Below, in pieces: positions 2,874 to 48,219 of a DNA stretch of 64,000 bases. Numbering within the stretch: position 1 is the stretch's first letter; every line of letters begins with the position of its first letter. The DNA is from an uncultured delta proteobacterium (lineage in GTDB: Bacteria > Desulfobacterota > Desulfomonilia > Desulfomonilales > Desulfomonilaceae). The notes under the pieces were generated by a model. That model saw only the letters and a program-made list of their open reading frames with translations, did not search any database and was not told the DNA's origin. Position numbers and translations under genes: made by a program. The stretch covers positions 2,016,001 to 2,080,000 of the forward strand of contig CAWBKB010000001.1 of the NCBI GenBank assembly GCA_963789265.1. Reading direction: 5' to 3'.

Positions 2874-4480
<1,607 letters not shown>

Positions 4481-8270: not shown

Positions 8271-9985
8271 CTACCCAACGAACACGTCCTTGGCTTCGGG
8301 GTAAGCAGGCATACCGAACTCGGGGACGTCGAGACCTTCCACCTCAACCTCTTTCGGGACGCGCAGTGGGACGATACGATTTACGATTTTGAACACCACG
8401 TAAGTGAGACCGAACGCGTAAAGAGCAATGAGCGTGGCTCCGCCGAGCTGCGTAAAGAACTGGGTCACATCCCCATGAAGTAGGCCGGTAACACCTTGGC
8501 CGGCTTTACCGACGTAAGTCGTCGCTCCCACGCCGTTCCAGCCGGACCCGTAGGTGCCGTCTGCAAAAATACCAAGAGCAACCGCGCCCCACCAGCCGTT
8601 ATATCCGTGCACGGAGATGGCTCCGCAGGGGTCATCAACTTTGATTGTCCGCTCATTAAAGAGAAACCCCCAGGCAAACGATGATGCCGGCAACTATACC
8701 GATGATGACCGCGGAGTTTGGTGAAACAAACGCACAGGGCGCAGTGATTGCAACGAGGCCGGCCAGCATGCCGTTGCACGCCATTGAGATATCCGGTTTG
8801 CCGAAAAGGAAGTACCAGAAGATCAGTGCCGTAGCCGAAGCCGAGACCGCGGCGAGATTTGTGTTCACCGCTATCACGGCGATGCGCAGGTCCGTCGCAC
8901 CAAGGGTGGAACCGGGGTTAAACCCCATCCAGCCGAATAGAAGAATGAAAGTGCCGATCACGACGAAGGCAATGTTGTGAGCTGGAAAGGGCCGTGGCTT
9001 GCCGTCCGGGCCGTACTTGCCGAGGCGAGGGCCGAGGATGACCGCGAGGGCCATCGCGGCGAAACCGCCTACCGCGTGAACAACGGTCGAGCCCGCGAAA
9101 TCCACGTACCCGTGAGCCAATCCCAAGGTGGCGCCCAATTGCGAGAGCCAGCCACCACCCCAGGCCCAGCAACCGGACATTGGATAAAGGATGCCGCCCA
9201 TGAAGATTTCCGTCAGAAACGAATGCCCAAAAAGTGATTCGCTCGCAGATGGCTCCCACGATGATGTACCCTGCGGTCTCCATGAACACGACCTCGAATA
9301 GAGTCAGACAGTTACTCCCGGCGTCGTAGGCCGGACCGCCCAGGAAGAAGCCGCTGCCTCCCAGAAATCCCCACTGGCCGCCTCCTATGAGAAAGTGGGT
9401 CAGAGTTGGGGTCCCTCCGATATTTGTCGGTGCGGCATTGATTGCAACGGCGCCGTACTGGAAGGCGTAGCCACAGACATAGTATGCCAAGAACGCGAAA
9501 ACGTACGCAGCGAAGTTGAGCATCATGAGATGCGCGGCGTTCTTCCTGCGCACCAAGCCGCACGTGAGTAAGGCGAAGCCCGCTTGCATGAAGAGAACCA
9601 GGTATCCTGTGATGAGAGTCCAACTAAAGTTGGCCCCAATCCGGTTGTGACCTACCGTATCCGCCAGCTTGACAGCCAGCGGCTCTTTAGCTGCCTGGGC
9701 CTTGTACTCCTCGAACTCCTTTAACTTTTGCGCATAGTCGGGCGCGGTCTTATCAGTGGGTTCGGTGACGACAAAAGAATTGCCGGCCCCATCAATGGCA
9801 TTTGACTTGTCGCCGGTGGCTATGCCCGCAGGATCGGGCTTCGGCACCGGAGCAGGCGTCGCCGTCGCTTGAGGGGCTCCTGCTGGAGGTGTGGCTTCCT
9901 CAGCAAGAACCGGACTCGTCATCAGCGTCCAGGCGACGAGTATTGAAACGGTCAGAAGTACGCATATAGTTTTTCTTTTAGCCAT
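8271..9985 (-). CDS. amt: Ammonium transporter (copy 3, divergent, long N-terminal extension); split into 3 ORFs by +1 frameshifts near 9217 and 8664
   Basis: FMQAGFALL, DFAGSTVVH, GWMGFNPGS, DDPCGAISVHG across ORFs 8918..9985, 8656..9201 and 8271..8693. Confidence 0.9.
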
Positions 9986-32991: not shown

Positions 32992-33068
32992 GGCGGTGTA
33001 GCTCAGCAGGTTAGAGCATGCGGCTCATATCCGCAGTGTCCGGGGTTCAAGTCCCTGCACCGCCACCA
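32992..33068 (+). tRNA. tRNA-Met(CAT), elongator type; integration target
   Basis: GGCGGTG/CACCGCC acceptor stem, GCGG-CTCATAT-CCGC anticodon arm, GTTCAAG T-loop, encoded CCA. Confidence 0.93.
33039..33068 (+). repeat. Left att core (30 bp)
   Basis: TCCGGGGTTCAAGTCCCTGCACCGCCACCA, identical at 48190-48219. Confidence 0.95.
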
Positions 33069-33118: not shown

Positions 33119-33138
33119 TTGTGTGCAAATTGTGTGCA
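33119..33138 (+). repeat. Tandem TTGTGTGCA pair, probable integrase arm sites (second pair at 48117-48136)
   Basis: Same 9-mer doublet with 11-bp period, ~50 bp inside both att sites, in the same orientation. Confidence 0.75.
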
Positions 33139-33205
33139 GATCCTCTGTGATGGGAAATCAGACGGGGAACACGTAAATATATGGGACGTGGTTCCCGTAA
33201 AAATC

Positions 33206-33305
33206 GGTCCACTCGGTCCATTCGGGACTTTTGTTGTAATTTCGAGGGATTGCCGAAATTTAAAGCGGTCCACAAGTGGTCCACTTGGGGGGTAAAGTGG
33301 TCCAC
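33206..33305 (+). repeat. Left GGTCCAC iteron-like array (5 copies)
   Basis: Copies start at 33206, 33215 (GGTCCAT), 33267, 33278, 33299. Confidence 0.85.
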
Positions 33306-33317
33306 TGCTTGATTTTA

Positions 33318-34484
33318 TTACTGATTTGACTTTTTCAGGGGGGTGACAGTTGCTTTTCTTTGAATTGATCGAAGTGCGTTAACTTCCAGGTGGGAATATC
33401 GCTTGGTCTGCTCAAGATTGCTGTGCCCCAAAAACTTGGAGACTTTGTAAAGGGATTGGCCGTCGTTCACTGCTTGTGAGGCAATACTGTGGCGCGTGCC
33501 CTGATATAAGGTGATGTGAGCAACCCCAGCTTTTTCACGGGCTGCGTTCCATTGGTTCCTGCACCAATTCCGACCATGAGGCTTACCGGTCGAATCGCAA
33601 AAGACAAATCCCTCGGCATCCACATGGCGCGGTCTCGTCAAATAGAGTTCTTTCCAATTGGGGTCGAGAGGAACAATGCGAATTCGCTTTGACTTGGTAA
33701 ACGGCCGCAGGTCGTTATCAGCGAAGGCCCGCTGTATAGTCACTAGATCATTTTTTAAGTCGATATCGTGATGCTGAAGGGCTCGGGTCTCTCCGGGCCT
33801 CGTTCCGTGCGTAGCTGAGAAGAGGATCATAAGGTGCGCGTCAGCGGTCAGGTTCGCAAAGATAAGGTCCTGTGTCTCGACGTCCGCCCACTTCCACTCC
33901 GGGTCCGGCAGAGTACTTGCCCTGAATTCCATCGGGAACTTGGGGATTGCCTGTATAACCTCTTCCTCGTACGCATCCTTGAAGATCTTGTGAAGGGCGC
34001 TCATGATATTCCAGAGGCTTTTGGGGGAGTAATCAAGCGACAGGTAGAATTGTTTCAGGTCGCGCCCGCGGATCTCTGTAATGGGCTTCTCCTTGAAGTA
34101 GGGAAGGAATATGTTGCGCACGTAGTTCCTGAGCGAGCCCAAGTAGGTAATTGACAACTCATTCCGATCTTTGCGACGCTGGCAATTGCTCAGCCACTCT
34201 TCTGCGTAGACGGAGAAGCTGTGGAGTGATTTTTTCGTCTTGGAATAGAAGTCCGGGTCGAATGTCCCGCTTTGTATCTCGCCTGTTATTTGCGCCAGGG
34301 TATATTCGGCGTGCTCACGACTGTGAAAACTTCTGTGTTGCTTGTCGGCCCAGATCTCAATTCCGCCTGACAGACGGATTTTCCAGCGGTTGCCCCGATT
34401 CTTGTACACCTTCCCCAGAGCAGGCATTGTCCACACCTCCGGCGTTTGGGGGAAAGCATACTTTGTTTTTGACTTTGGGGGCAA
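33318..34484 (-). CDS. int: Tyrosine recombinase / phage integrase
   Basis: GTRPGE, TKSKR, YQGTRHS, LGHSN..TKRY; adjacent to the tRNA att site. Confidence 0.93.
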   Translation of the reverse strand: MPPKSKTKYAFPQTPEVWTMPALGKVYKNRGNRWKIRLSGGIEIWADKQHRSFHSREHAEYTLAQITGEIQSGTFDPDFYSKTKKSLHSFSVYAEEWLSNCQRRKDRNELSITYLGSLRNYVRNIFLPYFKEKPITEIRGRDLKQFYLSLDYSPKSLWNIMSALHKIFKDAYEEEVIQAIPKFPMEFRASTLPDPEWKWADVETQDLIFANLTADAHLMILFSATHGTRPGETRALQHHDIDLKNDLVTIQRAFADNDLRPFTKSKRIRIVPLDPNWKELYLTRPRHVDAEGFVFCDSTGKPHGRNWCRNQWNAAREKAGVAHITLYQGTRHSIASQAVNDGQSLYKVSKFLGHSNLEQTKRYSHLEVNALRSIQRKATVTPLKKSNQ

Positions 34485-34883
34485 CTATTTTTCCGTTTTT
34501 GATTGCTCGCGGGAAAGTTCGCGCTCTAACCAAGCCAGATACTCGGGGAGCTGTTGATCCGTCAAACGCAGACCGGTTGCCTTGTGGATATTGCTCCTGA
34601 GCCTCTTAAACTGGCGTTTAAACCTGTAGTGTTGGCGTATTCGGCGGACACTTCCCTTGATCCACGCCAAGGGGCCTTGAGCGGGACACCAGCCCGGTAG
34701 TCGCAATATCTTGGCGAGGGCTTCCACCTGCACGGTAAGCCAGTGGTGAACAGCCCAGCCGTTTGGATCTCCCGATTCGCTGGACAGATAGGCTGGGTAT
34801 CCCAACAGCCGGGCCGCATCCCACGCGACCGCGGTGAGAAATGATTTGAACAACGACCATGCAAATTTCAGCCAGTCTCTCAT
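34485..34883 (-). CDS. Hypothetical protein
   Basis: ORF abuts or overlaps its neighbours in the operon. Confidence 0.55.
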   Translation of the reverse strand: MRDWLKFAWSLFKSFLTAVAWDAARLLGYPAYLSSESGDPNGWAVHHWLTVQVEALAKILRLPGWCPAQGPLAWIKGSVRRIRQHYRFKRQFKRLRSNIHKATGLRLTDQQLPEYLAWLERELSREQSKTEK

Positions 34884-35164
34884 AGGTTTTCCCTCTCTTC
34901 CGAATAGCAGATGCGGCGCATGATATAATCAGCAGCTTCCCGTTGCGCCGGCGTAATTGGTCGTGGAACCGGATGCGCCCTTAGTATTTTCTCGAGTGCA
35001 CGTAGGGCAACGACGACCGTTTCAGCGGCCCGAACTGCCTTAGCGCCGGCTTCGGGTGCGTACCAATTTTCAACGTCGTGCATTAAAGATTCCGCTTCAC
35101 TTTGCAGTTGCCGAACCTTATCTATGATCTTTCGGAATTCTCCGCACGTATACCCGGGAGTCAT
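34880..35164 (-). CDS. Hypothetical protein (MTPGYTCGEF...)
   Basis: ATGA overlaps with both neighbours. Confidence 0.6.
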   Translation of the reverse strand: MTPGYTCGEFRKIIDKVRQLQSEAESLMHDVENWYAPEAGAKAVRAAETVVVALRALEKILRAHPVPRPITPAQREAADYIMRRICYSEERENL

Positions 35165-35640
35165 GCTGACCTCGCTTCCAATCGGGATTGATGATCTCGC
35201 CAAAACCTCAACAAAATGCTCTCGCAGAGTGTTGCCGCAACTTCCTGGCTCCCAGCGAATAAGAAGGGTATGGCATATCTGTGCTGTAGCGCCACCACGG
35301 ATTCCCAGGCGCTCCTGGGGTTCATTTGGCTGCGGTAATTGCCTTGGAGTAGATCTGAATACCGGGCTTCCACGACCACATAGAAATGCAGGATGGACGC
35401 GGCCCGCTCCAATTCTCTCGTGAACCGTTCGCGGGAGACGGTTAAACAGCCGATCAAATCGTCCAGGGTTTTGCGTTCGATTGAAACCCAGCTTTGGAAG
35501 CCGTCCAGCGAATAATCGCCAGTCGGAAGGCACGTCCGGACGGTTGGCAGAGAAAAGTAATTTTCCCATGGCGCGGGGTCCGGTTCCCGCGTATCAATCA
35601 AGAAAAGCGGCAGAGGTTCGCTCTTGGCCATGCTACTCAC
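35161..35640 (-). CDS. ERCC4/XPF-domain nuclease
   Basis: IDTREP, LPTGDYS, IERKTLDDL, VVVEA. Confidence 0.85.
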   Translation of the reverse strand: MSSMAKSEPLPLFLIDTREPDPAPWENYFSLPTVRTCLPTGDYSLDGFQSWVSIERKTLDDLIGCLTVSRERFTRELERAASILHFYVVVEARYSDLLQGNYRSQMNPRSAWESVVALQHRYAIPFLFAGSQEVAATLCESILLRFWRDHQSRLEARSA

Positions 35641-38085
35641 CCCTGTGCCGACTTAAATTGAGCGCAACTGGTAGCGTCCCGTCTCTCCACTGGCTTGGGG
35701 CAACACCACTCAAGATCACACTGGCTACACGCAAGACTTTGCTTCCCGAAATTACCAGGCACCACGTTGTCCGCTTGGCCTTCGGCCCTCAGTCCTATGC
35801 CGCGCCAAACCTTGACCCGAGCGCTTGCGGGGCCTACTTTGCCCTTTATAATGCCCGCTCTGCCTAGAAGATTTTCGTTGAACGGCGCACGCTTCAAGGG
35901 CTGCTCTCGCACATCCTCACAATGTGACTGATACGCCTTGTAAAGCTCCGAAACGGGTACAGTCGCGGAGATGTGGACCACACAATGCTTGTCCAGGAAA
36001 TCGCCTAGTTTATCGGCGTCTTGCCGGTAATCAGCAACTGCCAACTTGACCTTCTCGGGAGGATTGAGGCCGCTCTGTTGCCACTGCCGAAGCCCAGTCA
36101 GCATCCAGTTTAAAATGCCAGGCGCTTCGGCCTTCAGTTTGTCACCCAGAGTGACATCCTTATCCTCTCCCTCGAATTGCCGGGTAAATGGAATAAGTTG
36201 CGGGCGCCTCCAAAACGCCTCAGACGCGTCCCGCACTTCTGGTCGATTGTTCGCGCAAATGAAGACTTTGGCTTCAGGAGTAAACTCGAAAAATTCCCTG
36301 CGCAAAAAGCGAGCAGTAACCTTACCGTCTCCAGAGACTTTCTTGATAGTTTCGGCGTCGAATCGTTTCCCCTTCGGTTCAGAGGCAGACACGAACCGAG
36401 CGCCCCGGAGTCTGGCCAGGTCATTGCGAGGCGAATCGTCGTTTCTGCGCTCCATGAATGTGGCGGCGGGCGTATCAATAGCGTAGTCCCCCAATACCGC
36501 AGAGATGGTGTTTACAAGCACGGATTTGCCGTTACTGCCTTTTCCCCAGAGAAAAAACCAACATTGTTCGGTGGTCAGCCCGGTAAGGGCGTAGCCCAAC
36601 ACCCGCTGCATATAAGCGGTTAATTCGGCGTCGCCTTCGGTAATCTCTGTGATGAATTGATCCCACCGCGGGCAAACGGCCGCTGCGTCATAGTCAACAG
36701 GCGCTACCCTCGTAATGAGATCATTTGGCGAATGTGGTCGTAACTCGCCGGAGGCAAGGTCAACGGTGCCGTTCCTCACGTTCAAGAGCAAGGGGTTAGT
36801 ATCAAACACGTCTGGGAGTACACTGATTTCCTGCTCAGACGGGAGTAGCTGAATCATGGCGTTGATCTTGGAAACGCTCTCGCACTTCCGGGCGAACTTA
36901 GTCAGAGCTTCTTGCTGGTCCTTGTCCGTCAGATTCGCCGCTTCGCCGTGAAGTCCCCTTACTACGTCCTTGGCAGCGGCCTGAACCCGTGAAAGTTGAT
37001 CCTGCGCCCATCTAGTTCCGTCATAATGGTACCATCCTCCCAACTGTCCGCAGAACTTGATTTTGCCTTGAACAGCAGCGGCCAAGCGCTCAGCGTTTCC
37101 CATGTCGCTGAGGTGGTGGGAATCAGACTTGCCCTTTTCTTGAGCCTGGCGCCGGCGCTCGGCACGAATTGCCGATACGAATTCGTACTCCGGGGTCTCT
37201 TCCGCCAAATAAAGCAACGTGTAATATGTCCCCTCGCGACCCTCCTTCTCGAGGAAATCAGAGAGGTCCCCCCCTTCGGGCAGGTTGGGCAGGTTCAGGA
37301 TTTTGACGCTTTTCGCAAATCCGTGGAGGGTATCAGCTACCGCTCGGGCGTGACTCTGACCCGGTTCGTCATTATCGGGGATGATCCATACTACGCGATC
37401 TTTGAGAGGCTCGTGAATCGCATATTTTTTGACCAGGCCCGGCCATTTACTGCCATGCCGGTCAGCGCCCTGCGGAGGCGTCGTGGCCACAAATCCGAGA
37501 GACCGGGCCGCCAGAAACATCTTTCTCTCCTTCGACTACGAGAACCGGCTTTTCCGGATCCGCGGCCAACAACTCCGGCAGCCCGAATAGGACGCGAGGG
37601 ATGCCGTTTAGATCCCAGGCCCAACCGTCCTTGCCCTTTGGGTCCGGGCGCCGCACGGGGAAATCTCCTTTTGGGTCCGTCCTGCATACCTCATAGAGCA
37701 ATTTTCCTGACTCATCGTGGTACGGGTAGGTCGCGATGATCCTGGCGTACTGCTTCCGTTTTTTCTTGGAAGTTTTTCCTTTATCCGGCTTGGGCTTCCC
37801 GGCCCCTTCAGCGATCCAATTGCAGGCGTCCAGAAATGAGCACTCTTTGGCCGCCATAACGAATCCGATGGGGGGGTAATGCGTATTGCTGGAAAAATCA
37901 TGAGCGTGGTCTTCGTAGATTTTGAGGCTTTCAGTGCTCTCTGATGGATTCTCGATGCTCTTTATAAATCCGCTCGCATTAGGCTCTTTCCCCAGGCGAC
38001 GGCATATCTCGGGCAGGGAAATCAACTTATTGTAATAGTCGGTATTGACTTTGGAGTTCGCGTCAGGTAGGCTCTGATCTGACAT
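35637..38085 (-). CDS. Toprim primase fused to a P4/D5-family SF3 helicase; +1 frameshift near 37515
   Basis: VVEGEKDV, IIPDNDEPG, GGDLSD (Toprim); LSDMGNAER, NGTVDL, GKGSNGKS (Walker A), KKVSGDG, AFWRR. Confidence 0.9.
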
Positions 38086-38331
38086 TTATGGTTCCTCATA
38101 CTGCCCCGGCCGCCAACCGGGGTTTTGTTTATTTGGTTTTCGTTTCTCGGCCTTGAACTGTTTGGCCAGTACTAGCCACTCCGGAATGCTGCCTTCTGGC
38201 CAGTAAAATCGCCCGCGGGGGCTCACAAACGGAGTCGGAAATGCTCCTTGGTCCATGAGGATCAAAAGTTGCTCCACTGTGAGGTGCAACAAATCAGCGA
38301 GACCATGCACATCAATCCCGTTTGTCATCAT
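38086..38331 (-). CDS. AlpA/excisionase-like HTH protein
   Basis: Short winged-HTH with G.FPTP and W..GSI.EW pattern, upstream of the primase. Confidence 0.65.
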   Translation of the reverse strand: MMTNGIDVHGLADLLHLTVEQLLILMDQGAFPTPFVSPRGRFYWPEGSIPEWLVLAKQFKAEKRKPNKQNPGWRPGQYEEP

Positions 38332-38521
38332 TTTTCAGTTTGGCCCCTACAGCCCCGGCTCCGAAATAATGAGCACAGTGGCGGCTGAATTCCCGTAGTT
38401 CGTCACGCACATGTTTGAATTCCCCGCGCCTCATCCGCTCTATCGTTGACCGATGGATGCCCAGCAATATGGCCACACATGGCTGGGAGCATTCAGGCGG
38501 TATGTGTCGATCGGAATCCAT
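38312..38521 (-). CDS. Hypothetical protein
   Basis: GAGG RBS; operon position. Confidence 0.5.
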   Translation of the reverse strand: MDSDRHIPPECSQPCVAILLGIHRSTIERMRRGEFKHVRDELREFSRHCAHYFGAGAVGAKLKNDDKRD

Positions 38522-38533
38522 CTCATTTCCTCG

Positions 38534-38767
38534 TCAGGCCGCGCCCTGGCCTGAGTTTTGGGTGATGTCAGGTACTCGCTCCATTAACCGCTGAAATGTC
38601 CATTCTGGGCCGAAGAATCGTTTCAACTTGCGCTCAAGGTTGCCTGGAGCACGCGTGAGCCAACCGTTTTCCAGTTTGGATAGAACCGATTGCTGCACTC
38701 CCAACTTCATCGCCAAATCCCTCTGACTGATTTGTCGTTGAAGCCGCATGAAAAGCAGGTAATTCAT
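38534..38767 (-). CDS. XRE/Cro-like HTH regulator
   Basis: ISQRDLAMKLGVQQSVLSKLENG; AGGAGG RBS. Confidence 0.85.
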   Translation of the reverse strand: MNYLLFMRLQRQISQRDLAMKLGVQQSVLSKLENGWLTRAPGNLERKLKRFFGPEWTFQRLMERVPDITQNSGQGAA

Positions 38768-38830
38768 AAGGTCCTCCTATCGTTTGGTCACACTTACTGT
38801 GACCTGGTAGACAAAAAAAGGGGCTTACCC

Positions 38831-39439
38831 TCACCGGTTTATTAAAACATCCCCTCGGTAACCGTCAGTGCGTCGCAGGGATTTTGAGACAGTACGATCC
38901 AGGGTTACCCCTAGAGTTTTTTCGATATGTCGAGCAATCGCTTTCACGGAGATGAATGTTGCGCTCATCATAACCATGCCCTGCCAGGGATTCATGCCAA
39001 GCCACGCCTTAAACGTCTCGCGCGCCACATCCAGCGGTTCCACAACCATCATGCACGTGCGCACATTTTTAGCGGTCGTATGATGTTCTTTCGGGTTCTC
39101 GCGCTTTTCGCTTGATATGGATAAAGCGATACTCACGTCATAGCCCCATGCCCGGCAGTACTCCATGACTAGAATAGGCTCCCAGGCCAACGAGAGTTGA
39201 GGTTGTTGCCGGTCCGTCGCGTGGCCGATCAGCATTTGAATATGGTCCGCCCGGTATACTCCATAATGCGAAGCCTGGACTACGATTCCTGTGAGAATGG
39301 CCTTTGGCTCAGGGAATATCATATAGCCGCGAGAATCCCTGTCCACAGGCAGGACGCCTGCATCATCCCAATGTTTGATCGTTGTGCGGCCCACTTCAGG
39401 AAAGCAGTTTTGAATGTTCTTTGGCGAAAATGTCTGCAT
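38831..39439 (-). CDS. Hypothetical protein with MerR-like N-terminal HTH
   Basis: RTTIKHWDDAGVLP..RDSRGY.IF. Confidence 0.6.
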   Translation of the reverse strand: MQTFSPKNIQNCFPEVGRTTIKHWDDAGVLPVDRDSRGYMIFPEPKAILTGIVVQASHYGVYRADHIQMLIGHATDRQQPQLSLAWEPILVMEYCRAWGYDVSIALSISSEKRENPKEHHTTAKNVRTCMMVVEPLDVARETFKAWLGMNPWQGMVMMSATFISVKAIARHIEKTLGVTLDRTVSKSLRRTDGYRGDVLINR

Positions 39440-39583
39440 AGTAACCTCGTTGTGTTCACAGTCAGTGTGACGGGAAGAGACATATAGGAGAATTTTCTGA
39501 GTGTCAACGACTTTCTATGATTTGTTTTGGGTCTATTTTATTTTTTTGCCGTCCAGCTATAGAAGCCCGCACTGACAGTGGTT

Positions 39584-39599
39584 TGGCACACTTGTTGCT
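39584..39599 (+). promoter_or_regulatory. Sigma54 -24/-12 site in the divergent control region
   Basis: TGGCACACTTGTTGCT. Confidence 0.65.
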
Positions 39600-39827
39600 G
39601 AAGGCTGTCAACGCAGATTTTAGGCAGTAATACCTTGAAATGTTTCGAGCGCTAGCAAACAACTACCAAGTCACCTCTCCAAACCCCTGCATGGAAGCCC
39701 ATAAGTGGCACCCTGCATGAAGAAAACAACTACCAGCCATTTCGCAGCGTCCATGATGTCCAATAATCTCGCGCGGTTATAAGGCCGCGGAGTGCATCAT
39801 TTATTTGAAATCATTACCATTTTGGGC

Positions 39828-39856
39828 TTGACTCGTCGCGCGCGGAAAGATATCAT
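39828..39856 (+). promoter_or_regulatory. Sigma70 promoter
   Basis: TTGACT-N17-TATCAT. Confidence 0.6.
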
Positions 39857-40004
39857 GCCCCCCATCTGCATCCAAAATCGCAATCCCCTCCCTTGTATCA
39901 GACTGGTACTCAGGTCCTATACTATAAACCGCAAAAGCCCCCGTTGGAGACAGGAGCTCCGTCGAGGGCTGATGCCACACCTATGCGTCAAAGGAAGGTG
40001 CAGC

Positions 40005-40472
40005 ATGGCAATAATCTATCGTTTCTCGAGCCGCGAAGCAATTTCAAAAGAAGCGCGGCCCACAACGCCATACGTTCCCCCTTGGGAGCAATACTCGCCC
40101 GTACGAAGGGTTATTTTGCCAGACTTTTTCTATCCGGATGTTGAGGTTGTTCGCCGGCAAGATTCTGGGTGCAAACTTGACTACAAAGGTTTCTACTTCC
40201 GATTGATAGTCTGTAAAAAGCCCGGAGAGAGCATCAGAGCGTTTTGCAAGAGAACTGGATATAGCAAGTCAGCGTTCTATCATTTGAGGCAAAATCCAAG
40301 TTCAGTTGCTTCAAACAGGCGTGTAAATCCAAAACTGGCCGACAACCTGGGGGTCGATCCAGGCTGGCTCGAATTGGGGTTGGATTTTGGCCCGCTGCGC
40401 GAGCGAGGTAAATGGCCGCACGTTGAACTGGCGCAAACCGCCGTACCCTCAAAAGTTCGATCCCTGCAATAA
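40005..40472 (+). CDS. HTH-containing putative regulator (paralog 1)
   Basis: AAGGAAGG RBS; SIRAFCKRTGYSKSAFYHL ... LADNLGVDPGWL (XRE-like). Confidence 0.6.
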   Translation: MAIIYRFSSREAISKEARPTTPYVPPWEQYSPVRRVILPDFFYPDVEVVRRQDSGCKLDYKGFYFRLIVCKKPGESIRAFCKRTGYSKSAFYHLRQNPSSVASNRRVNPKLADNLGVDPGWLELGLDFGPLRERGKWPHVELAQTAVPSKVRSLQ

Positions 40473-40537
40473 TTTCTTAACTCCCCGGTCTGCCTGGGCC
40501 GGGGTCCACACTGCCTATGCATAAAGGAAGGTGTAGC

Positions 40538-40869
40538 ATGTCAAAGTCTATCGTTTCCAAGGAAGCAAAACAAACTGTTCTTCGCGAAAGCGCCGATTAC
40601 CGAATAAGCCATTACTCTATAGAGGAACTCCGCGAATGCGGAGAGAAATTGAGGGCACTCCTGAACGAGATACTCCCTGGCAGGACGGTTCCGAACTGGG
40701 CGCAAGCGCTGGGGGTGAGCGAAAATTTGCTTTTAAGGGTTTCTGGGGGGCACAAAAGGCTTCACGATAACCGACATGTTGAGCGTCACCCAAGGCTTAG
40801 TCCGTCTCAGTACTCCGGCGTGGGACGTGGCAAGTTGGTGGTGGGTCGGCCCCGCTGCGGAGGAGGTGA
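40538..40869 (+). CDS. HTH-containing putative regulator (paralog 2); probable +1 frameshift near 40755
   Basis: Same leader as paralog 1; WAQALGVSENLL; corrected C-terminus ...GPLRRR resembles GPLRER of paralog 1. Confidence 0.5.
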
Positions 40870-41092
40870 GATTGTGGAGAGCTCGCGAAACCGATTCTGA
40901 GGAAGTTCCCGTGCCAGTGCAGTAACCTTTACATCCCCGCTCTTCGGGGCGGGGACCCTCCCTCCCCCGTACCCGATCAGCATACGAAATTCCCGATTTT
41001 GACAAATAGTGCTACGATTACCCTCCGGGCGATCCCCGATCCGGCCGGCGCCGGGGAAGTGAGAAGGTGGGGCGTAACACGATCTCCAATGG

Positions 41093-41419
41093 CTACAGAG
41101 AGAGCACACAGAGGTCGTTGTTCTTGGGCCGGGGCTTCACGGTACGCTTAATCTCCGCTTCCATTCGATCCTCTGCCATGTCCAGGTCGTACCGCGCCTG
41201 TGCGTTCAACCAAAACTGCGGAGTGGTCCTGAAATACCGCCCCAGCCGCATGGCCGTGTCTGCCGTGACGCTGCACTTGCCGTTGAGAATACGATTTACG
41301 GTTGAAACACTAATCCTCAGAGCTTCGGCAAGCTTGTGCTGAGTCAAGCCCAAAGGGTCCATGAATAGTTCCTTTAGTGTCTCGCCCGGGTGAATAGGCG
41401 GTAATTTTCTCGTTTTCAT
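41093..41419 (-). CDS. higA: HigA-family antitoxin
   Basis: PPIHPGE.L, TADTAMRL.RYF.TTPQFWLNAQ.RYDL. Confidence 0.92.
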   Translation of the reverse strand: MKTRKLPPIHPGETLKELFMDPLGLTQHKLAEALRISVSTVNRILNGKCSVTADTAMRLGRYFRTTPQFWLNAQARYDLDMAEDRMEAEIKRTVKPRPKNNDLCVLSL

Positions 41420-41461
41420 AATGTTTTTTCCTATAGATTCTATAATATATTTGTTTCATAC

Positions 41462-41740
41462 TCAGTGATAATCGACCAGTTCTAGATCGTGAATGTATCC
41501 ATCCTTCCAAGCGAAGCACAATCGCCAGTTGCCACTGACCCGTAAGCTATGCTGACCCCTCCGCTGCCCCTTCAATGCCTCCAGCCCCCCACCGGGAATA
41601 GCGGCCAAGTCTTCCAGGCGCACAGCATCTTGCATCGCTCCAAGCAACAGCCTAAGTCTCCTGTGAAGGTGCTCAGGACTCCTTGAATGCTTCCGGTTAG
41701 ACAGCTTCTCCAGTTCCTTGTCTGCAACGCTCTTAATCAT
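41462..41740 (-). CDS. higB: HigB (RelE/ParE-family) toxin, probably leaderless
   Basis: MIKS..DK, LEALKG.R.GQHSLRV..NWRLCF.W, VDYH; TTGCAT-N17-TATGAT ends 6 nt before the ATG. Confidence 0.9.
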   Translation of the reverse strand: MIKSVADKELEKLSNRKHSRSPEHLHRRLRLLLGAMQDAVRLEDLAAIPGGGLEALKGQRRGQHSLRVSGNWRLCFAWKDGYIHDLELVDYH

Positions 41741-41806
41741 GTATATATCATATTGCGCAACGCGGGACAATGCAAGTTCAAAAATGAAAGACATCCAATC
41801 GGCAGG

Positions 41807-42043
41807 CTACCACCCCTTATTCCACCACGGCCCGATCTGCCAGAACGATGTAACCCCTTCTCTGCGGTTGAAAACGGGGAATCCGGCCGCCCGGAGTGCT
41901 TCCAGGTCCCGGTAAATCGTTCGGTATTTTGCCTCGAGTACCCGACAGAGTTCTTCCACCTGGCAACCCGATGGATTTGCCGACAGGTAGCGGACCAGCT
42001 TCCACTGACGAATTAGTGATGTGTTTGGGTGGTCTTTTGCCAT
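41807..42043 (-). CDS. Stand-alone winged-HTH of the WYL-regulator N-terminal type
   Basis: ELC..LE...RTIYRDLEAL.AAGFPV; no WYL domain follows. Confidence 0.7.
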   Translation of the reverse strand: MAKDHPNTSLIRQWKLVRYLSANPSGCQVEELCRVLEAKYRTIYRDLEALRAAGFPVFNRREGVTSFWQIGPWWNKGW

Positions 42044-42057
42044 GGTACGATAGGCAG

Positions 42058-42567
42058 TTAATTATCGTGTTGCGTCTCGCTTGCTTGCTTCCCCTGGAAG
42101 TCGAGAATCCAATCCGTGAGTTTTGAGCGGTCTACCAATTCGCAGCCGTTCGATTGCGCCAGGGTTCGGGCTCCCTTTGTGAAAAGGCTGTTCGTCACAA
42201 CCTGCGCCTCGCTGCATTTATAGTAGGTCTTTCCTGCTACCGCGTCCGATATTGCCCTTCGACTCACCGATTTACCGTGACGCTTGCATTGAATCGCAGT
42301 TCTGGTGCCGTTCGATACTGCTATGAGGTCAACGCCAAGGTCACCGCTGTCAGGCGTAAATTGTACCCGCTTCCCCTGATGCTGGAGCAAACGTGCAACG
42401 TAATTCTCAAACTCGCGCCCGCTCATGAGATCGACCCTGGAAATGTCCAGAGCCCTTATCCTTCGCTCTATCCTCCGCCGTTGCTTCACGCCCCTCCAAA
42501 CGCCCCAGGCGACCACGAGTACTATGCCGAGTAAGAAGAGAAGAGTCAATAAGCTGCTGTCGTCCAT
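42058..42567 (-). CDS. Membrane-anchored Mrr-family restriction endonuclease
   Basis: N-terminal TM; MSGREFE, GDLGVDL, IQCKR, VTNS.FT..A..LA. Confidence 0.85.
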   Translation of the reverse strand: MDDSSLLTLLFLLGIVLVVAWGVWRGVKQRRRIERRIRALDISRVDLMSGREFENYVARLLQHQGKRVQFTPDSGDLGVDLIAVSNGTRTAIQCKRHGKSVSRRAISDAVAGKTYYKCSEAQVVTNSLFTKGARTLAQSNGCELVDRSKLTDWILDFQGKQASETQHDN

Positions 42568-42640
42568 CTGAGCCCCCCTGAATAAAGTTACGACTCCGCG
42601 CGAACGCAATCAAGAGAAATCTGTGTCGCCTCAACTGCCT

Positions 42641-42950
42641 TCACAGGACCCGCGTGGTTGCGATTTCAGGCGAGAGATAGGGATTGATGCCCGGAGAGCC
42701 TGAACCTCGCTGAGATTTGACTACACGGAGCCAGTGGCGCACCTTCTTGGCTACCTTCTGTTCACTGAACATGCAGAGAAGAATTAGACCGTCCAGGGTG
42801 AAGTACCGTTCGCGAGTCGGAGGACGATGTACATCATGTGTAGGCGATACGCCTATTCGAGTGGAATTATAGTCGAATCCGGCCCGTATCAGCCAGGATG
42901 TTTATTTGGGTGCAATCATTGTCGAATTCGTCCTTATGGGTTTTGAGCCC
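42641..42950 (-). pseudogene. Degenerate Bro-N/antirepressor-like fragment
   Basis: HKDEFDNDCTQ in one frame, RYFTLDGLILLCMFSEQKVAKKVRHWL in the next; no start found. Confidence 0.5.
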
Positions 42951-43051
42951 AGCCGCAACGAGAAACGACCGGGCTCTTGCCCTGGCTCGGAAGGGTTTGA
43001 CCAGGGCGCCCAGGCCGCCGAAAACTACTTGGAAAACGGCGGCCTATCGAG

Positions 43052-43121
43052 TTATCCACAACCCTCCGGGGGACCGAGAAGTTATCCACAGGTTACTTCC
43101 GGGAGGGAAAAGTTATCAACA
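43052..43121 (+). promoter_or_regulatory. Three phased DnaA boxes
   Basis: TTATCCACA at 43052 and 43082; TTATCAACA at 43113. Confidence 0.75.
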
Positions 43122-43158
43122 GCCCCTGCCTCCGCAGGAGGTGCGAAAAAATTACGCA

Positions 43159-44175
43159 TCATGAGTACGAAACCTCCGTGGGATCATTGGTGGAGACGAT
43201 TTTGGGGGCGTTGTAGGCAGCATAACGAAGAAAATAATTGGCGAGTCGATCCCGAACCGCTTGAAAAAATTCTGAGATGTCGATCTTGGGTTTTTCTTGG
43301 ATTATGTGCCGCGTTCCTTGCAAGAGTCCTGCTGCCCCATTCACCACAAACTGTGTCTCGCCTGCTGTCAAAATGATGCAGTTGTTATCAGCGTCCAGGA
43401 TGATCGAGGGGCCAATATCCTGATTCTCTTTTGCGGACAGGATCATGACCCGTCCCTTGTCATCTTGCGCCCATCTGTAGATTCCTTGCCCGTTGAGATC
43501 AACCTCGCCAGTGATCGCGACTCCGCCGGCGATCAGTTCAGAGGGCTTCCAGGAGGTTCCTGCCATAACGGATTTAACGCCTCGAACCTCGCCTTTGCGG
43601 TACTTGCTCTCGTCGTTCTTTTGCTCCTGCTGGTCTTCCGTTTGGCCGGGCGCCACCGAAAAATGTCCTGCCCCTGTCCAATCCAGCAATGCTAGAGTTT
43701 CTGCTTTGCCGTTGTCATCCATCAGGAGGGTATGGCCGGCCTCGCTCTTCAGGAGTCTTATGCGAGTACCCTGGCGCACATCATTATCGCTGTAGACCTT
43801 AGCTTCCGCGGGAATCATCTCCGATTTGTCATCCTTAGAAGCGTTCCACGCAGAGAACGGGAAGACAATCGGGCTCGCATAATAGTCACCGCCAGGGAAG
43901 GCCACAGTAACGAGTTCCTTCGGGACAGGGCACCACCACATTCCCATGTCGCCATTACCGGCCGAACCGCCCATCGGCAACCAGGACATTTCGCACCAGT
44001 TCGACCAATTCCTGTAGTCTCCGTCTTCGAGCAGGCTTCGGATCTCAACTCGGACGCGACCTTTTCGTAACGGGTCTTTCAGGTCCTTGACGACTCCCAC
44101 GTGGCAACTTGCACCTTGGAGAATGTGGTGCGCCTCGCGCGGAATCGGGATTTTATTTTGTCGGGGGTCCGTCAT
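43159..44175 (-). CDS. Phage baseplate spike protein (gpV/Gp5 OB-fold, VgrG-like)
   Basis: GVV...DP..KGRVRV, WC, GMWW.P...E.V.VAF.GGD...PIV, followed by beta repeats KSEAGHTLLMDD. Confidence 0.8.
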   Translation of the reverse strand: MTDPRQNKIPIPREAHHILQGASCHVGVVKDLKDPLRKGRVRVEIRSLLEDGDYRNWSNWCEMSWLPMGGSAGNGDMGMWWCPVPKELVTVAFPGGDYYASPIVFPFSAWNASKDDKSEMIPAEAKVYSDNDVRQGTRIRLLKSEAGHTLLMDDNGKAETLALLDWTGAGHFSVAPGQTEDQQEQKNDESKYRKGEVRGVKSVMAGTSWKPSELIAGGVAITGEVDLNGQGIYRWAQDDKGRVMILSAKENQDIGPSIILDADNNCIILTAGETQFVVNGAAGLLQGTRHIIQEKPKIDISEFFQAVRDRLANYFLRYAAYNAPKIVSTNDPTEVSYS

Positions 44176-44272
44176 TGGATTGCACTCCTTAGAAGAAAAT
44201 CCCGCCCCACGGCCATAGGAATGGTTGAGACTCCGGGAGGCGGGCCTATCCGCCTGACGAGCGGGTAAAACG

Positions 44273-44650
44273 TTAAAATTCCAAAGTTTCGACTGGTTGT
44301 CCTACGTCGGTTGCGTGTGTAATCGCCATGCCATGTTTGACCTGACCATCGGCAACCGGAAAAACGGCATTCCCAGCGCCAAAACAGAAGGGGCCGACTG
44401 GTACGGCAGCGCCACTAACCCTCGTGCGCCTCAACACGAAGCTTGATACCACCACGCATGTTTCGGGATCTAAGCAGCCGTAATTGCTGGCTGAATGCCG
44501 TGAAATCACTTCACCGACAACATTTGCACTCCCCTGGCTAGAAATCGGTTGCACCGACATGTCGCCGATGATTTCAACGATGTCTCCTGCCTGAGTCTCT
44601 GGCGTGCATGTGAACATGTCAGACAGCGGTTCACCTGCGACTTTATTCAT
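44273..44650 (-). CDS. Putative capsid decoration/cement protein (DUF2190-like)
   Basis: 125 aa, beta-rich: AGDIVEI, VVGEV, GAAVPVG, GMAITHATDVGQPVE. Confidence 0.45.
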   Translation of the reverse strand: MNKVAGEPLSDMFTCTPETQAGDIVEIIGDMSVQPISSQGSANVVGEVISRHSASNYGCLDPETCVVVSSFVLRRTRVSGAAVPVGPFCFGAGNAVFPVADGQVKHGMAITHATDVGQPVETLEF

Positions 44651-44858
44651 TTTGCCCCCCGATCTTGACCCATCCTTTTGTAGCCAACTTTTGCACCGCC
44701 TCTCGAATGTCTTCCTCCATGAGCCTATCAGCAGCATCCTTCTTTCGGTTTGCCATCTCAAGTTCCGTATCCCGCGGGCCCGCTCCGTCTGTGCAGTGCT
44801 CGAAGCTGAACACCGTTTCGCCGTCGATCACTTCAGCATGTGGTATTGTCGCATTCAT
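44643..44858 (-). CDS. Hypothetical protein
   Basis: Translationally coupled within the operon. Confidence 0.5.
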   Translation of the reverse strand: MNATIPHAEVIDGETVFSFEHCTDGAGPRDTELEMANRKKDAADRLMEEDIREAVQKLATKGWVKIGGQNE

Positions 44859-45011
44859 CGGTTGTTTCTCCTCGCCTTGGCCACGTTCCGATAGTAGGTA
44901 CGGCGCTCTTCCAGCAGATCCACGTCCTGACAGGTCTCAATGTGGCGTCTGGTCCTTAATCTCTTCACGGCTGAGCTTCAACTGAACATTAACGCTGTCA
45001 GCTTTGAGCAT
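44855..45011 (-). CDS. Small hypothetical protein (extra base near 44950)
   Basis: Overlaps both neighbours; reads MLKADSVNVQL...ERRTYYRNVAKARRNNR when corrected. Confidence 0.4.
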
Positions 45012-45805
45012 CAGGCAACCTCGGCTTTGGCCAGCGCCGCCTCAGCCCGCGGAAGGTATGCTCTTATGGCGGCCCGGACCATGCACTCATCTTCATCCGC
45101 TCCACTCGGTAGCCGCGTGCTCAGACCCCATGGCATCGACCATGTGTAACGGGTTATCTCCCCCTTGCTCCTGTCAAGCTCACCGCCGAGCGGCCGTAAG
45201 GTGTCACCGGCTTTACGTTTGGATAGAAAACCCATCACGGCCGTCTCTAAATGTTTTTCCAGACAACCGCCCAGGTCGCGGAGTCGTTCCAAATCATTCA
45301 TATACACATTAAGATGGAATCCGACCCGGCGACCGGAAAACATCGGCCGAATGTGGCCGCAATGAGCTTTGGCATACTTTTTGACAGCGGCCCTCATGAA
45401 AAATGCCCTCTCGTCCGGCTGAACCGGCAAAAACTCGTCTGCCAAGTCGCTGGGGACAACCCAGATGTAATTCGTGCACTGCTCAGACGCCCGGAAATTA
45501 GGCACGTTCAGCTTACCCTCAGTGAACACCGACTCGGGGCTCTTCGGCTGGTAATCTCTCACAGCGGCCCAGAAATGGTCCGACAGAGGATCGTCTAGTT
45601 CCCTGAACTTCTCGAAATAGCTGTTTTCGTACGCGACCATAATCCTGGTCAGACCCGGCACCCGAGGCGGCTCTACCGGCTCCGGCAACTGCGCCGCATA
45701 GAATGATACCGCTTTCTCAGCCGCATCCACAATGTGGCCCGTGGCCGCCAACCTCCGGTAATCTTCGTCCGAAACTCGTAATACCAAACCCAAATCGTGC
45801 GCCAT
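45011..45805 (-). CDS. Hypothetical protein with ~5 tandem ribbon-helix-helix-like units
   Basis: AGGAGG RBS; repeated beta-helix-helix units ending AV/AI..Y/F. Confidence 0.6.
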   Translation of the reverse strand: MAHDLGLVLRVSDEDYRRLAATGHIVDAAEKAVSFYAAQLPEPVEPPRVPGLTRIMVAYENSYFEKFRELDDPLSDHFWAAVRDYQPKSPESVFTEGKLNVPNFRASEQCTNYIWVVPSDLADEFLPVQPDERAFFMRAAVKKYAKAHCGHIRPMFSGRRVGFHLNVYMNDLERLRDLGGCLEKHLETAVMGFLSKRKAGDTLRPLGGELDRSKGEITRYTWSMPWGLSTRLPSGADEDECMVRAAIRAYLPRAEAALAKAEVA

Positions 45806-46102
45806 AAAGCCTCCTGAAAAAACCCAATAATGGTTGACTGCTCATTATCAAAGACTCGCTCGATGTCAAGGAAAATTAACCGCGCAAGTTAATCCAGTTT
45901 AATACGTTTAATGAGTTAAGAGAAAAAATATCAAAAACGGCATATACGGGGGAGAGATTGCCCTAAAATCGCCGACCCCGGGGGGGGGCCTTTTCAGACA
46001 TAGGGGGGGGTATACTTGTGGTACCATCGCGCCACGCTTGGTGTTTCAGTGCGGGGTGAGCTTGTGCGGTGAAACTTCTATCGTGCTCTGGTCTGTTGTA
46101 GA

Positions 46103-46420
46103 TCAACTCTCGTCGTCGTCGTCCAGCGCTGCCTTCGCTACGAACGCGTCAATCCTTTTGATCAACGGCTCCCAGCTTTGCGGCATGTATCCGTCCAAAC
46201 ACGCCATGATCATGAGGTTTATTCCCTCGGTTATAGCCTCCCGAGCTTCAACGAGAAGGGAAATTGCATCGTCGGTGCCTTCCCCGAGATATCCATCAAG
46301 GGCCTTTTGGCGGTTGGCGGGTAACTGAGCAACCAGCTTTTTCAATTCGATCATTGCCGGGTGCTTCGAGATGTCTCCGGGCTTTTTGCGAACGTTGGTT
46401 CCATCGTTTGCATTTTTCAT
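46103..46420 (-). CDS. Hypothetical protein
   Basis: ATGA overlap with the serine recombinase; GGAGG RBS. Confidence 0.6.
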   Translation of the reverse strand: MKNANDGTNVRKKPGDISKHPAMIELKKLVAQLPANRQKALDGYLGEGTDDAISLLVEAREAITEGINLMIMACLDGYMPQSWEPLIKRIDAFVAKAALDDDDES

Positions 46421-47121
46421 GCGGCCCTCCTGTAAATCTTGGCAACCAGGACATCCGACCATACAGCGCCAGTCCGGGTCTGATAACCTTCCTGGTTCAA
46501 TTCCCGCGCTATCGCCCTGAATCCATGTCCATCTGCTTTGAGCTCGTGAATACGTGCAATGATCTTCTGCTCGGTAGGCTCCGGGACCAATACTTTGAGC
46601 GGTCGATCTTTGCCGGCCTGAACCTTTTCTTCAACCCCGAATCCAAAAGGAACATGACCGCCTGTCTTCTCGTTCCGCTCTTGCTTGTCTTTCATGATGG
46701 CCAGGGTGCGCTCACTCGTCACGTCACGTTCGAACTGAGCAAAGGCGCTCATCATACTGAAAAACAACTTACCTGCGGCACTGGTAGTGTCGATGGACTC
46801 GCTGACACTGATGAAGTCCCGGCCCAGCTTGTTCAACTTCTCAGCCGTTGCAATAGAATCCTGAGTCGAACGGAAAGCTCGGTCTAGTTTGAACACGATC
46901 AGACCGGCAACTTTGCCACTGTAAACCTCATCTAGGCAGGCTTTGAATCCGTGGCGTAGGTGGATACTCTTAGCGGATACACCGTCGTCGTAATAGATGC
47001 AGTTCAGTTCGAGGCCCTTGGCCTGAGCATAGGCTGAGATTCGCTCGCCCTGCATTTTCAAGGACAAGCCGTCTTTGGCCTGCTTCGCGCTGCTCACCCG
47101 AACATAACCGTTGACTTTCAT
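46417..47121 (-). CDS. Serine recombinase (resolvase family with recombinase-domain C-terminus)
   Basis: YVRVSS, DDGVSA, FKLDRAFR, DTTSAAG, AQFER...ERT, GGHVPFGF. Confidence 0.92.
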   Translation of the reverse strand: MKVNGYVRVSSAKQAKDGLSLKMQGERISAYAQAKGLELNCIYYDDGVSAKSIHLRHGFKACLDEVYSGKVAGLIVFKLDRAFRSTQDSIATAEKLNKLGRDFISVSESIDTTSAAGKLFFSMMSAFAQFERDVTSERTLAIMKDKQERNEKTGGHVPFGFGVEEKVQAGKDRPLKVLVPEPTEQKIIARIHELKADGHGFRAIARELNQEGYQTRTGAVWSDVLVAKIYRRAA

Positions 47122-47159
47122 AATCCATCCTCCCTTTTCTTTCGTCTACCCCTCTATAC

Positions 47160-47175
47160 TGCACATTCCATGCCA
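47160..47175 (-). promoter_or_regulatory. Sigma54 promoter upstream of the serine recombinase
   Basis: TGGCATGGAATGTGCA, ~40 bp before the ATG. Confidence 0.65.
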
Positions 47176-47454
47176 CTCTTCGCCCCGCGAGGCCACAATA
47201 TACAGCCTCCAAAGCGGCCCGTCGCGCAGATATGGTATGGTAAATCTCCTCGGGCCTGCTACAATGCGGAAATAATGCCGTGAGTGTCCGAAAAGTAAGG
47301 CAGAGTGTAGCTTATTGGGATCGCCCGACTTTTGGGGCAGTGTTTGAGCATAAAAAGCCCATTAACAGCCACTTTGGGTATTTAAAACCGCTCCATGAGA
47401 GGCCCAGGAAGGCGAGACCGCGTACTTTGCCAGGATCGGAGCAACCCTAGATGT

Positions 47455-47619
47455 TGGCACGAAGATTGCTTCTTATTATATGGCACGGTAATTGCTAAGA
47501 CATGGACCCGCAAGAGTGGCCCGGGCCTTGCATTATTAGCAGGTAGTATGCCATGAGACTATTTTGGCACGTGGCTAGAATTCTGTGACTAATTCCCTCT
47601 AAATGGCCCGCTTCCTGCA
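47455..47619. promoter_or_regulatory. Array of sigma54 -24/-12 motifs (5 matching, 1 partial)
   Basis: 47455 TGGCACGAAGATTGCT; 47481 TGGCACGGTAATTGCT; 47517 TGGCCCGGGCCTTGCA; 47538-47553 (minus) TGGCATACTACCTGCT; 47565 TGGCACGTGGCTAGAA (partial); 47604 TGGCCCGCTTCCTGCA. Confidence 0.8.
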
Positions 47620-47972
47620 TGTATTCCACGATAACACACCGCTTCTCACAATCGCTGATCTGAAACTCCGAGTAAACTAGGTGCATATACACCATATTTG
47701 CATCGAAATTAGAGCGCTGACATGGCAATGCTGGAGAGGCTTTGACCAGGTGGTCATCGGTAACAGCAGGCTCAGTGAGGAGTTAGAGAGGTTCCCAAAC
47801 TGGCCCGAGCGGTCAGTTTTCCGTGTTTCGCAAGAATCGCAATGGAAGTATGCATTGACGCATGGACCGGACAAGAAAACCGCGGGATTCCGCGGAGGCG
47901 TGGACGTGAGGAACCGGCAATCGCCACACTCTGAAAGTTTCTATAAACCTACTTCTTCAATGAAATCAATTA

Positions 47973-48071
47973 GTGGACCGTTTTTTATAAAAGTGGACCG
48001 TTTGTGGACCACTTTGCATTTTTATAAGTCTCTGGAATCAGGATATATGGACCGAGTGCACCGAGTGGACC
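47973..48071 (-). repeat. Right GGTCCAC iteron-like array (6 copies, inverted relative to the left array)
   Basis: GTGGACC at 47973, 47993, 48004, 48065; ATGGACC at 48047; GTGCACC at 48056. Confidence 0.85.
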
Positions 48072-48189
48072 GTTTTTTTATTCCTAACATAAAGTAAAAA
48101 AGCATAAGAAAAGGGGTTGTGTGCAGGTTGTGTGCAGGCGGGTATGGTGGTCAGTAAGTTGTAGTAATAACAGGGTTATTTGGTAGGCT

Positions 48190-48219
48190 TCCGGGGTTCA
48201 AGTCCCTGCACCGCCACCA
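48190..48219 (+). repeat. Right att core (duplicated tRNA-Met 3' end)
   Basis: Identical to 33039-33068. Confidence 0.95.

Follow-up and report, generated by a model that had tools for sequence, protein, structure and literature searches.

How does an integrative element keep its replication origin silent in the chromosome and yet replicate fast once it is out? Genomic islands and phage satellites must do both, and the known solutions to origin silencing are regulatory ones, such as repressors or induction by a helper phage. The 64,000-nucleotide stretch of DNA analysed here (the window; positions 2,016,001 to 2,080,000 of contig CAWBKB010000001.1, assembly GCA_963789265.1, from an uncultured soil bacterium of the Desulfomonilaceae) raises the question anew. 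It carries a mobile island of 15.15 kb whose target is the 3′ end of a tRNA-Met gene, with a tyrosine recombinase (the integrase) and an identical 30-bp core at both island ends, and close to each end stands an array of the short repeat GGTCCAC, the two arrays being mirror images of one another (Table 1). On balance we lean towards the reading that these arrays are the iterons of the island's primase-helicase and the opposed halves of a bipartite origin with the attachment site in its spacer, whereby replication would be tied to excision.

A preliminary description of this sequence had counted five GGTCCAC sites on the left and six inverse ones on the right. All are present, though not all as exact copies: the left arm has four exact copies on the plus strand (33206, 33267, 33278 and 33299) and one variant (GGTCCAT at 33215), the right arm four exact copies on the minus strand (47973, 47993, 48004 and 48065) and two variants (ATGGACC at 48047 and GTGCACC at 48056), each variant with a single mismatch. 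Measured from start to start, the left sites are spaced 9/52/11/21 and the right ones 20/11/43/9/9, as had been claimed. Within each arm the direction of the sites is uniform, five on the plus strand on the left and six on the minus strand on the right, which makes the two sides opposed; an A+T-rich spacer divides each arm into two sub-clusters, and a dyad form (AAGTGGTCCAC) is seen in 3 of the 11 sites. A repeat search returns the symmetry as an 88-nt inverted repeat (33199-33286 against 47991-48078, 70% complementary). The sheer count is unremarkable, with 13 occurrences of GGTCCAC over the whole window against 7.5 expected and at least 13 in 6 of 100 shuffles. The clustering is not chance: when the 15,181-nt element was shuffled 200 times with dinucleotides preserved, no shuffle held any exact 7-mer with at least four same-strand copies in 100 nt (the maximum was three in 40 shuffles and two in 160). 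The pattern GGTCCACN{2,6}GGTCCA occurs four times in the 6.06-Mb genome, and three of these occurrences are at the island's two ends.

On both arms, in mirror image, the arrays sit outside a second set of repeats, the TTGTGTGCA doublets, and the left array adjoins the end of the integrase gene. In the integrated island the two halves are 14.7 kb apart and hence not contiguous; as the preliminary description had seen, they lie close to each other only in the excised circle, where the inner triple and the inner pair would stand 285 bp apart (118 + 30 + 137 nt) with the attachment site inside. The symmetric structure that it had proposed across attP would form on circularisation, at a length not of about 0.45 kb but of 484 bp from outermost to outermost site across one core copy (247 + 237 bp). 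Within this centre of 285 bp the arms have 55-61% A+T and the tRNA core 33%; the 40-mer with 82.5% A+T, a candidate unwinding segment, abuts the right inner triple and lies entirely within attR.

The doublets themselves, in the same orientation at both ends and with 11-nt spacing, are most likely integrase arm sites, a judgement that draws on the company they keep in related sequences. Of 122 genomes searched in the class, 12 have the integrase family, counting the window's own, with 18 loci at 44-69% identity. The typical relative has an 11-nt-spaced doublet right after the stop (GTATGCAAA, GTCCGCAA or CTGCAAA), then about 55 nt and a tRNA 3′ fragment. Scanning the DNA past the integrase stop gave an exact doublet of at least 6 nt at 11-nt spacing in 11 of the 18 relatives; among the rest, two (L023 and L025) have one nearer the stop by eye, two have imperfect doublets and three are without, and doublets stand on both arms in L028, L029, L031 and L032. 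Because 11-nt doublets accompany the integrase in most of the 18 relatives, they track the integrase family. The P4 record offers an analogue in its 12-bp arm repeats, which flank the core on either side as adjacent doublets of a single orientation, as in the window, although the two integrases have no detectable BLAST similarity. The earlier view of the doublets as a separate, same-orientation, integrase-arm-like set thereby gains support. More distant integrase homologues from a phylum sample (11 loci, 32-38% identity), mostly with a tRNA-fragment core less than a few tens of nucleotides from the stop and without doublets, were set aside as uninformative.

For the arrays, the primase-helicase is the candidate partner that fits best with known systems. 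TIGR01613 identifies it as a P4-family primase (301 bits, where the cut-off is 108.7), and it also matches D5_N (1.5e-34), phrog_6088 (4.7e-151) and the DUF5906 and Pox_D5 domains, and its best solved relative is PriRep5 of SaPI5 (PDB 7OLA, E 3.3e-10). Excerpted accounts of the Staphylococcus aureus pathogenicity islands (SaPIs) state that their Rep proteins recognise penta- to heptanucleotide iterons via a C-terminal winged helix and that the origin has 6-12 iterons just past rep, half on either side of an A+T-rich centre (PMC9371898; bioRxiv 10.64898/2026.10.17.759575), with at least two iterons per side and the sides oppositely directed (PMC9371898). The iterons of SaPI5 are given there as L1-L6 and R5-R1, separated by dinucleotides and with single copies inverted (PMC9371898; bioRxiv 10.64898/2026.10.17.759575), and SaPIbov1 as requiring both the centre and the two flanking iteron sets (bioRxiv 10.64898/2026.10.17.759575). 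As far as these excerpts go, the window is alike in having a self-loading superfamily 3 (SF3) primase-helicase with a C-terminal winged helix, here the putative initiator, and short iterons (5-7 nt) of about 9-nt period, some 11 sites in two opposed halves; its 5 + 6 seven-nt sites, with 2-nt separators in the inner clusters, compare with 6 + 5 and 2-nt separators in SaPI5. The excerpts place the SaPI origin directly after rep, as one block of about 300 bp whose A+T-rich centre measures about 102 bp, whereas the halves in the window lie at opposite ends of the integrated island and the centre is the attachment site, a core with four arm sites, 285 bp across. The P4 record shows a likeness too. 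Its 16 type-1 iterons (TGTTCACC and variants), spaced 9-11 nt in ori and crr, have GTYCAC in common with the window's GGTCCAC, and crr is 117 nt from the attP arm doublet. Over the helicase, P4 alpha and the window's protein share 23% identity (E 2e-13). P4 differs in that its iterons are confined to one side of attP and its ori and crr stay together on integration.

Related elements, which the preliminary description had proposed to survey for the same symmetry, bear it out in part. Arrays between the integrase stop and the doublet are present in 4 of the 18 relatives (L013, L016, L017 and L018), the four that have the integrase gene on the tRNA side, after the primase-helicase gene. Larger stretches of the relatives were then fetched, and four complete elements were delimited by their repeats. 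L028 and L029, with tRNA-Gly as target and integrases 51-52% identical to the window's, have its layout at both ends with another motif: the doublets are direct (CGTGTGCAAA or TGTATGCAAA), outside them stand mirror-image GACAGTA/GACGGTA arrays of five or six sites per arm with an 8-9-nt period and one flipped copy in each arm, and TATATATA lies on the inner side. The flipped copies fit the single inverted copies of SaPI5, as far as the latter are described in the excerpts. L027 has the GACAGTA/GACGGTA layout at its one assembled end, and L030 (tRNA-Ser), with a primase-helicase that shares 64% identity with that of the window, has two TGGACC/TGGCCCC triplets of 9-nt period at its one assembled end. 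For the other end of the L030 element we turned to genome G025, where the strict triplet pattern gives two left-end clusters alone and the contig stops before the right end; a scan with a loose pattern gave 22 matches against 16 in the control, which is noise. Two unrelated iteron sequences and three tRNA targets go with this same layout, which suggests that it is selected, not accidental.

L031 and L032 are a natural contrast. Both use a tRNA-Met core identical to the window's, with integrases 69% and 63% identical, and both have doublets on both arms, yet no outer arrays; the arrays are therefore not needed by the integrase family. The primase-helicase of L031 is 32% identical to the window's (against about 26% over part of the length in L027-L029), and L031 has instead a compact mirror array in the intergenic region directly past the primase-helicase gene, in the order GAGCCATTT, GAGCCGTTT, GTGCCGTTT, spacer, AAATGGCAC, AAACGGCAC, TAATGGCAC. 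In the array-bearing elements the primase-helicase gene abuts the next gene without a gap, and the first non-coding DNA after the string is the left array. So it is in the window, where the ERCC4 gene overlaps the primase-helicase stop and leaves no intergenic space, and where no other iteron-like cluster was found in the element, both of which speak for the arrays as its iterons.

Compact arrays like that of L031 occur beside other primase-helicase genes. Searching a 401-genome sample of the phylum found the primase-helicase in 14 genomes, the window's own included, and gave 14 further loci at 32-44% identity, 13 of which were fetched (L039, on a 2.8-kb contig, was left out). A mirror array was defined by two or more copies of a 5-mer no more than a 14-nt step apart, the same arrangement of its reverse complement 30-220 nt beyond, and five or more copies altogether. 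On this definition 5 of the 13 loci have one within 400 nt past the primase-helicase stop, compared with 18 of 1000 windows drawn at random from those loci; L056 and L057 have mirror arrays by eye as well, and the other loci nothing clear. A metagenome scan with the primase-helicase gave six loci with no close relative (best 37% over the helicase) and was of no use for covariation. The putative compact origins (L056, L058, L059, L061, L064, L067 and L031) are mirror-image triplets of 9-10-nt period, which in the phylum loci stand around 55-90 nt that are A+T-rich or of alternating CG/TA. They resemble the window's arrays and differ from them in being contiguous, in beginning 0-300 nt past the stop and in having no attachment site associated. 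L059 has TGGAC three times and then GTCCA three times, which agrees in core and polarity with GTGGACC and GGTCCAC of the window when read along the primase-helicase gene. In motif length, 9-bp period, the numbers 5 + 6 and opposed halves, then, the window's arrays match SaPI origins, as excerpted, and compact origins alike, which favours the earlier proposal that they are iterons of the primase-helicase.

Put together, the island is an integrative element with a self-loading primase-helicase of the P4/SaPI type. The N-terminal domain of the integrase would bind the two TTGTGTGCA doublets, one per arm, that flank the 30-bp core, and the winged-helix C-terminal domain of the primase-helicase would bind the 5 + 6 GGTCCAC sites outside them. 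In related replicons such an origin would be compact and follow the primase-helicase gene directly; in the window, and with another iteron in the tRNA-Gly lineage, the attachment site would lie within the origin's central spacer. With the attachment site in the spacer, integration would send one half to attL and the other to attR, 14.7 kb apart, and excision would return them to within 285 bp. The anatomy, its conservation and its likeness to compact origins can be read off directly; the binding of the primase-helicase to the sites and the need for both halves in cis and close together, hence the tie of replication to excision, we infer. The coupling of replication to excision that the preliminary description had drawn from the geometry is unsupported, and it is the weakest step, because iteron clusters of this family, as P4 shows, can lie kilobases apart.

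Several observations weigh against the split origin. The strict definition of a mirror array is failed by 8 of the 13 homologue loci, and none of three distant homologue loci of the L028-type primase-helicase has a compact array after the stop, which leaves the tRNA-Gly lineage without an independent compact comparator. The pair formed by the window and L030 cannot separate the primase-helicase from orf81, a small protein encoded beside it, because orf81 co-varies with the motif too. The reconstituted centre of 285 bp with its 33% A+T core would be wide and poor in A+T beside the 55-150 bp of the compact relatives and the 102 bp excerpted for SaPI5. The left array is separated from the primase-helicase stop by 2.3 kb and three genes (ERCC4, orf132 and the integrase), being the first non-coding stretch after that string. 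Finally, the primase-helicase is in two frames in the assembly, as 207-aa and 627-aa open reading frames (ORFs), where relatives have one ORF of 801-896 aa. The frame switch is likely, but not proven, to be an assembly indel: a contig from public run X1 (a single contig, depth 4.1) lacks one base at 37515. The same contig lacks another base at 40740, and the two together suggest single-base indel errors in the assembly.

Might the arrays be primase-helicase iterons whose halves need no joining, each working alone or through looping like P4 ori and crr, with replication not tied to excision? In P4 the type-1 iterons stand in both ori (9310-9413) and crr (4291-4590), 4.7 kb apart. Together with the right half, whose six sites beside the 82.5% A+T stretch are all in attR, this means that the halves may work apart or alone, and the division of each arm by an A+T-rich spacer into two sub-clusters would suit such a use. 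Against this, each arm of the window has sites in one direction, while compact relatives and, in the excerpts, SaPIs have opposed halves; SaPIbov1, on the excerpted account, requires both iteron sets and the centre (bioRxiv 10.64898/2026.10.17.759575); and attP is nested between the halves in two lineages with different iterons. We regard independent halves as rather unlikely. A further explanation is that an accessory recombination protein (orf81 as excisionase, or another element-specific factor) binds the arrays and shapes or pairs attL and attR, with no role in replication. The excisionases of lambda and L5 bind a single arm, at sites that separate its arm-type repeats from the core, and thereby bend it. 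For orf81 there are Atlas leads to HTH_17/MerR clusters (0.94) and a weak similarity to P4 Vis (E 0.019, with 29% identity across 52 aa), with no Pfam or NCBIfam match; it is 54% identical to a neighbour protein in L030, which has the same motif, and direct repeats of 9-11 nt suit filament-forming winged-helix excisionases, to judge from an excerpted source (PMC11963761). Yet the arrays are found on both arms, each farther from the core than the arm sites, rather than on a single arm between arm sites and core; L027-L029 share the layout with no orf81 homologue found by BLAST at E 1e-3; mirror arrays follow primase-helicase genes in other replicons, far from attachment sites; and L031 and L032 have related integrases that use the same core without arrays. 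An accessory protein is accordingly an improbable binder. An ORF upstream of the L031 primase-helicase, taken by eye for an orf81 homologue, was dropped, there being no similarity.

That the arrays are additional arm-type sites of the integrase itself would explain their presence to either side of the core and the contact of the left one with the end of the integrase gene, and the P4 record has arm sites in mixed orientation; we hold it to be very improbable, given that integrases 63-69% identical manage with the same tRNA-Met core and doublets alone (L031 and L032), that the integrase family is tracked by doublets and not by arrays, that the array motifs GGTCCAC and GACAGTA are wholly different while the doublets TTGTGTGCA and CGTGTGCAAA are nearly alike, and that fifteen sites are far beyond a tetramer's need. 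Repeat arrays around a central site also occur at packaging (pac) and partition sites, and L028 has a capsid-like protein (Phage_capsid_4, 2.8e-09), from which the group may be phage satellites. A pac or partition site built across the junction nevertheless seems to us barely credible: family searches among the proteins of the window's element found no terminase small subunit, ParA/ParB or ParM/ParR, and the likeness to origins beside primase-helicase genes is more specific. The serine recombinase was also considered as the binder and rejected, for L031 has the recombinase but no end arrays.

A divided origin of this kind would be a simple structural solution to silencing, a cis-acting interlock in which the origin is a unit only in the circle. 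Functions made only in an excised circle are familiar from the junction promoters of insertion sequences and from Tn916 with its transcription across the joint. The logic would be the same, a cis element complete only after circularisation, though those cases concern promoters; for a replication origin divided by an attachment site we found no precedent in the literature covered, subscription journals and supplementary files lying outside that coverage. More tentatively, and as a possibility that we rate below an even chance, integration would physically disassemble the origin, the attachment site being placed in its unwinding spacer, only the excised circle would load two helicase hexamers, and the integrase complex and the initiator would compete over some 480 bp in a hand-over: with the integrase complex in place the origin would be silent, and with helicases loaded the circle could not re-integrate. 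If the split origin is real, short repeats that stand beyond the arm sites at either end, in mirror image, would be a genome signature for replicative islands and would mark their exact ends.

Table 1. Features of the island and its borders (positions in the window)
Feature	Positions	Strand	Evidence or remark
tRNA-Met (CAT), integration target	32992..33068	+	ARAGORN; Rfam tRNA, 66 bits
Left copy of the 30-bp repeat (tRNA-Met 3′ end)	33039..33068	+	30/30 identical to 48190-48219
Left doublet, TTGTGTGCA twice, probable arm-type sites	33119..33139	+	11-nt spacing, 50 nt from core; repeat search; relatives; P4 analogue
Left array, putative iterons	33206..33305	+	Inner pair 33206/33215, 9-nt period; outer triple 33267/33278/33299
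Tyrosine integrase, 388 aa, pointing to attL	33318..34484	-	Pfam Phage_integrase 2.3e-18; phrog_1 3.1e-38
orf132, no assigned function			Between ERCC4 gene and integrase gene
ERCC4-domain nuclease, 159 aa	35161..35640	-	Pfam ERCC4 4e-10; homologues in L027-L031
Primase-helicase, C-terminal part	35637..37520	-	Rest of Toprim, D5_N, SF3 helicase, winged-helix C-terminal domain, Cys-rich tail
Primase-helicase, N-terminal part, other frame	37462..38085	-	Frame switch ~37507-37515
orf81, small HTH_17/MerR-like protein	38086..38331	-	Candidate excisionase or regulator; candidate rival array binder
Small serine recombinase, 234 aa	46417..47121	-	Resolvase 1.8e-34; relatives 228-233 aa, hence natural length
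Right array, putative iterons, inverse of left	47973..48071	-	Outer triple 47973/47993/48004; inner triple 48047/48056/48065, 9-nt period
Most A+T-rich 40 nt of either arm, candidate unwinding segment	48073..48112	.	82.5% A+T against element mean of 47%
Right doublet, TTGTGTGCA twice, probable arm-type sites	48117..48137	+	53 nt before core; repeat search
attR core, second copy of the 30-bp repeat	48190..48219	+	Direct-repeat search

The island's genes are predominantly on the minus strand, and besides those in Table 1 they include two Cro-like helix-turn-helix proteins, HigB/HigA, an Mrr-type nuclease and a Phage_base_V-domain protein. The cargo genes of 41093-42609 (minus strand) include those for HigB/HigA, for an Mrr_cat nuclease that begins with a membrane-like segment and for a small HTH_11 protein, and may be a defence module. 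The ERCC4-domain nuclease is kept beside the integrase or the primase-helicase in L027, L028, L029, L030 and L031 (37-51% identity); a longer ORF in another frame than its gene (34880-35569) is probably spurious. An Rfam scan of the whole element gave the tRNA as its sole match. Contigs from three public soil-metagenome runs of one study held neither a circle joint nor an empty-site joint and are uninformative either way on excision or expression; their loose ends at 33068 are unlike the sequence past 48219.

The serine recombinase, 228-234 aa with a resolvase domain and the start of a Recombinase domain, is kept in the window, L028, L029 and L031, and may be a multimer resolvase of the circular form; except in L031, its distance to the right array is 260-850 nt. 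The interval between its gene and that array in the window (47122-47970, about 850 nt) has no convincing ORF and no Rfam match, and the matching gap in L028 and L029 is merely about 260 nt. Two ORFs without a family match, 47681-48097 (plus strand), which runs across the right array, and 47495-47728 (minus strand), were taken as non-genes.

L031 (element coordinates 4225-4430) and L032 (4005-4100), the latter without a primase-helicase, have about eight repeats at the DNA level, ATACCACA and TACCGCA, inside an ORF of 253 or 259 aa without a family match; their spacings are not multiples of three, and so they are not peptide repeats. Tandem arrangements may also occur in this group. In L024 (G038:C247) a second doublet, TTTCTGCAA twice, follows the tRNA-Gly core, as though two elements of the family stood in tandem, and in L093 (G412:C59), about 60 nt past the tRNA-fragment core, AGTCCCGCG occurs three times with a 9-nt period, followed by CGCGGGAC twice and one more AGTCCCGCG, perhaps the end array belonging to a similar element next to it in tandem.

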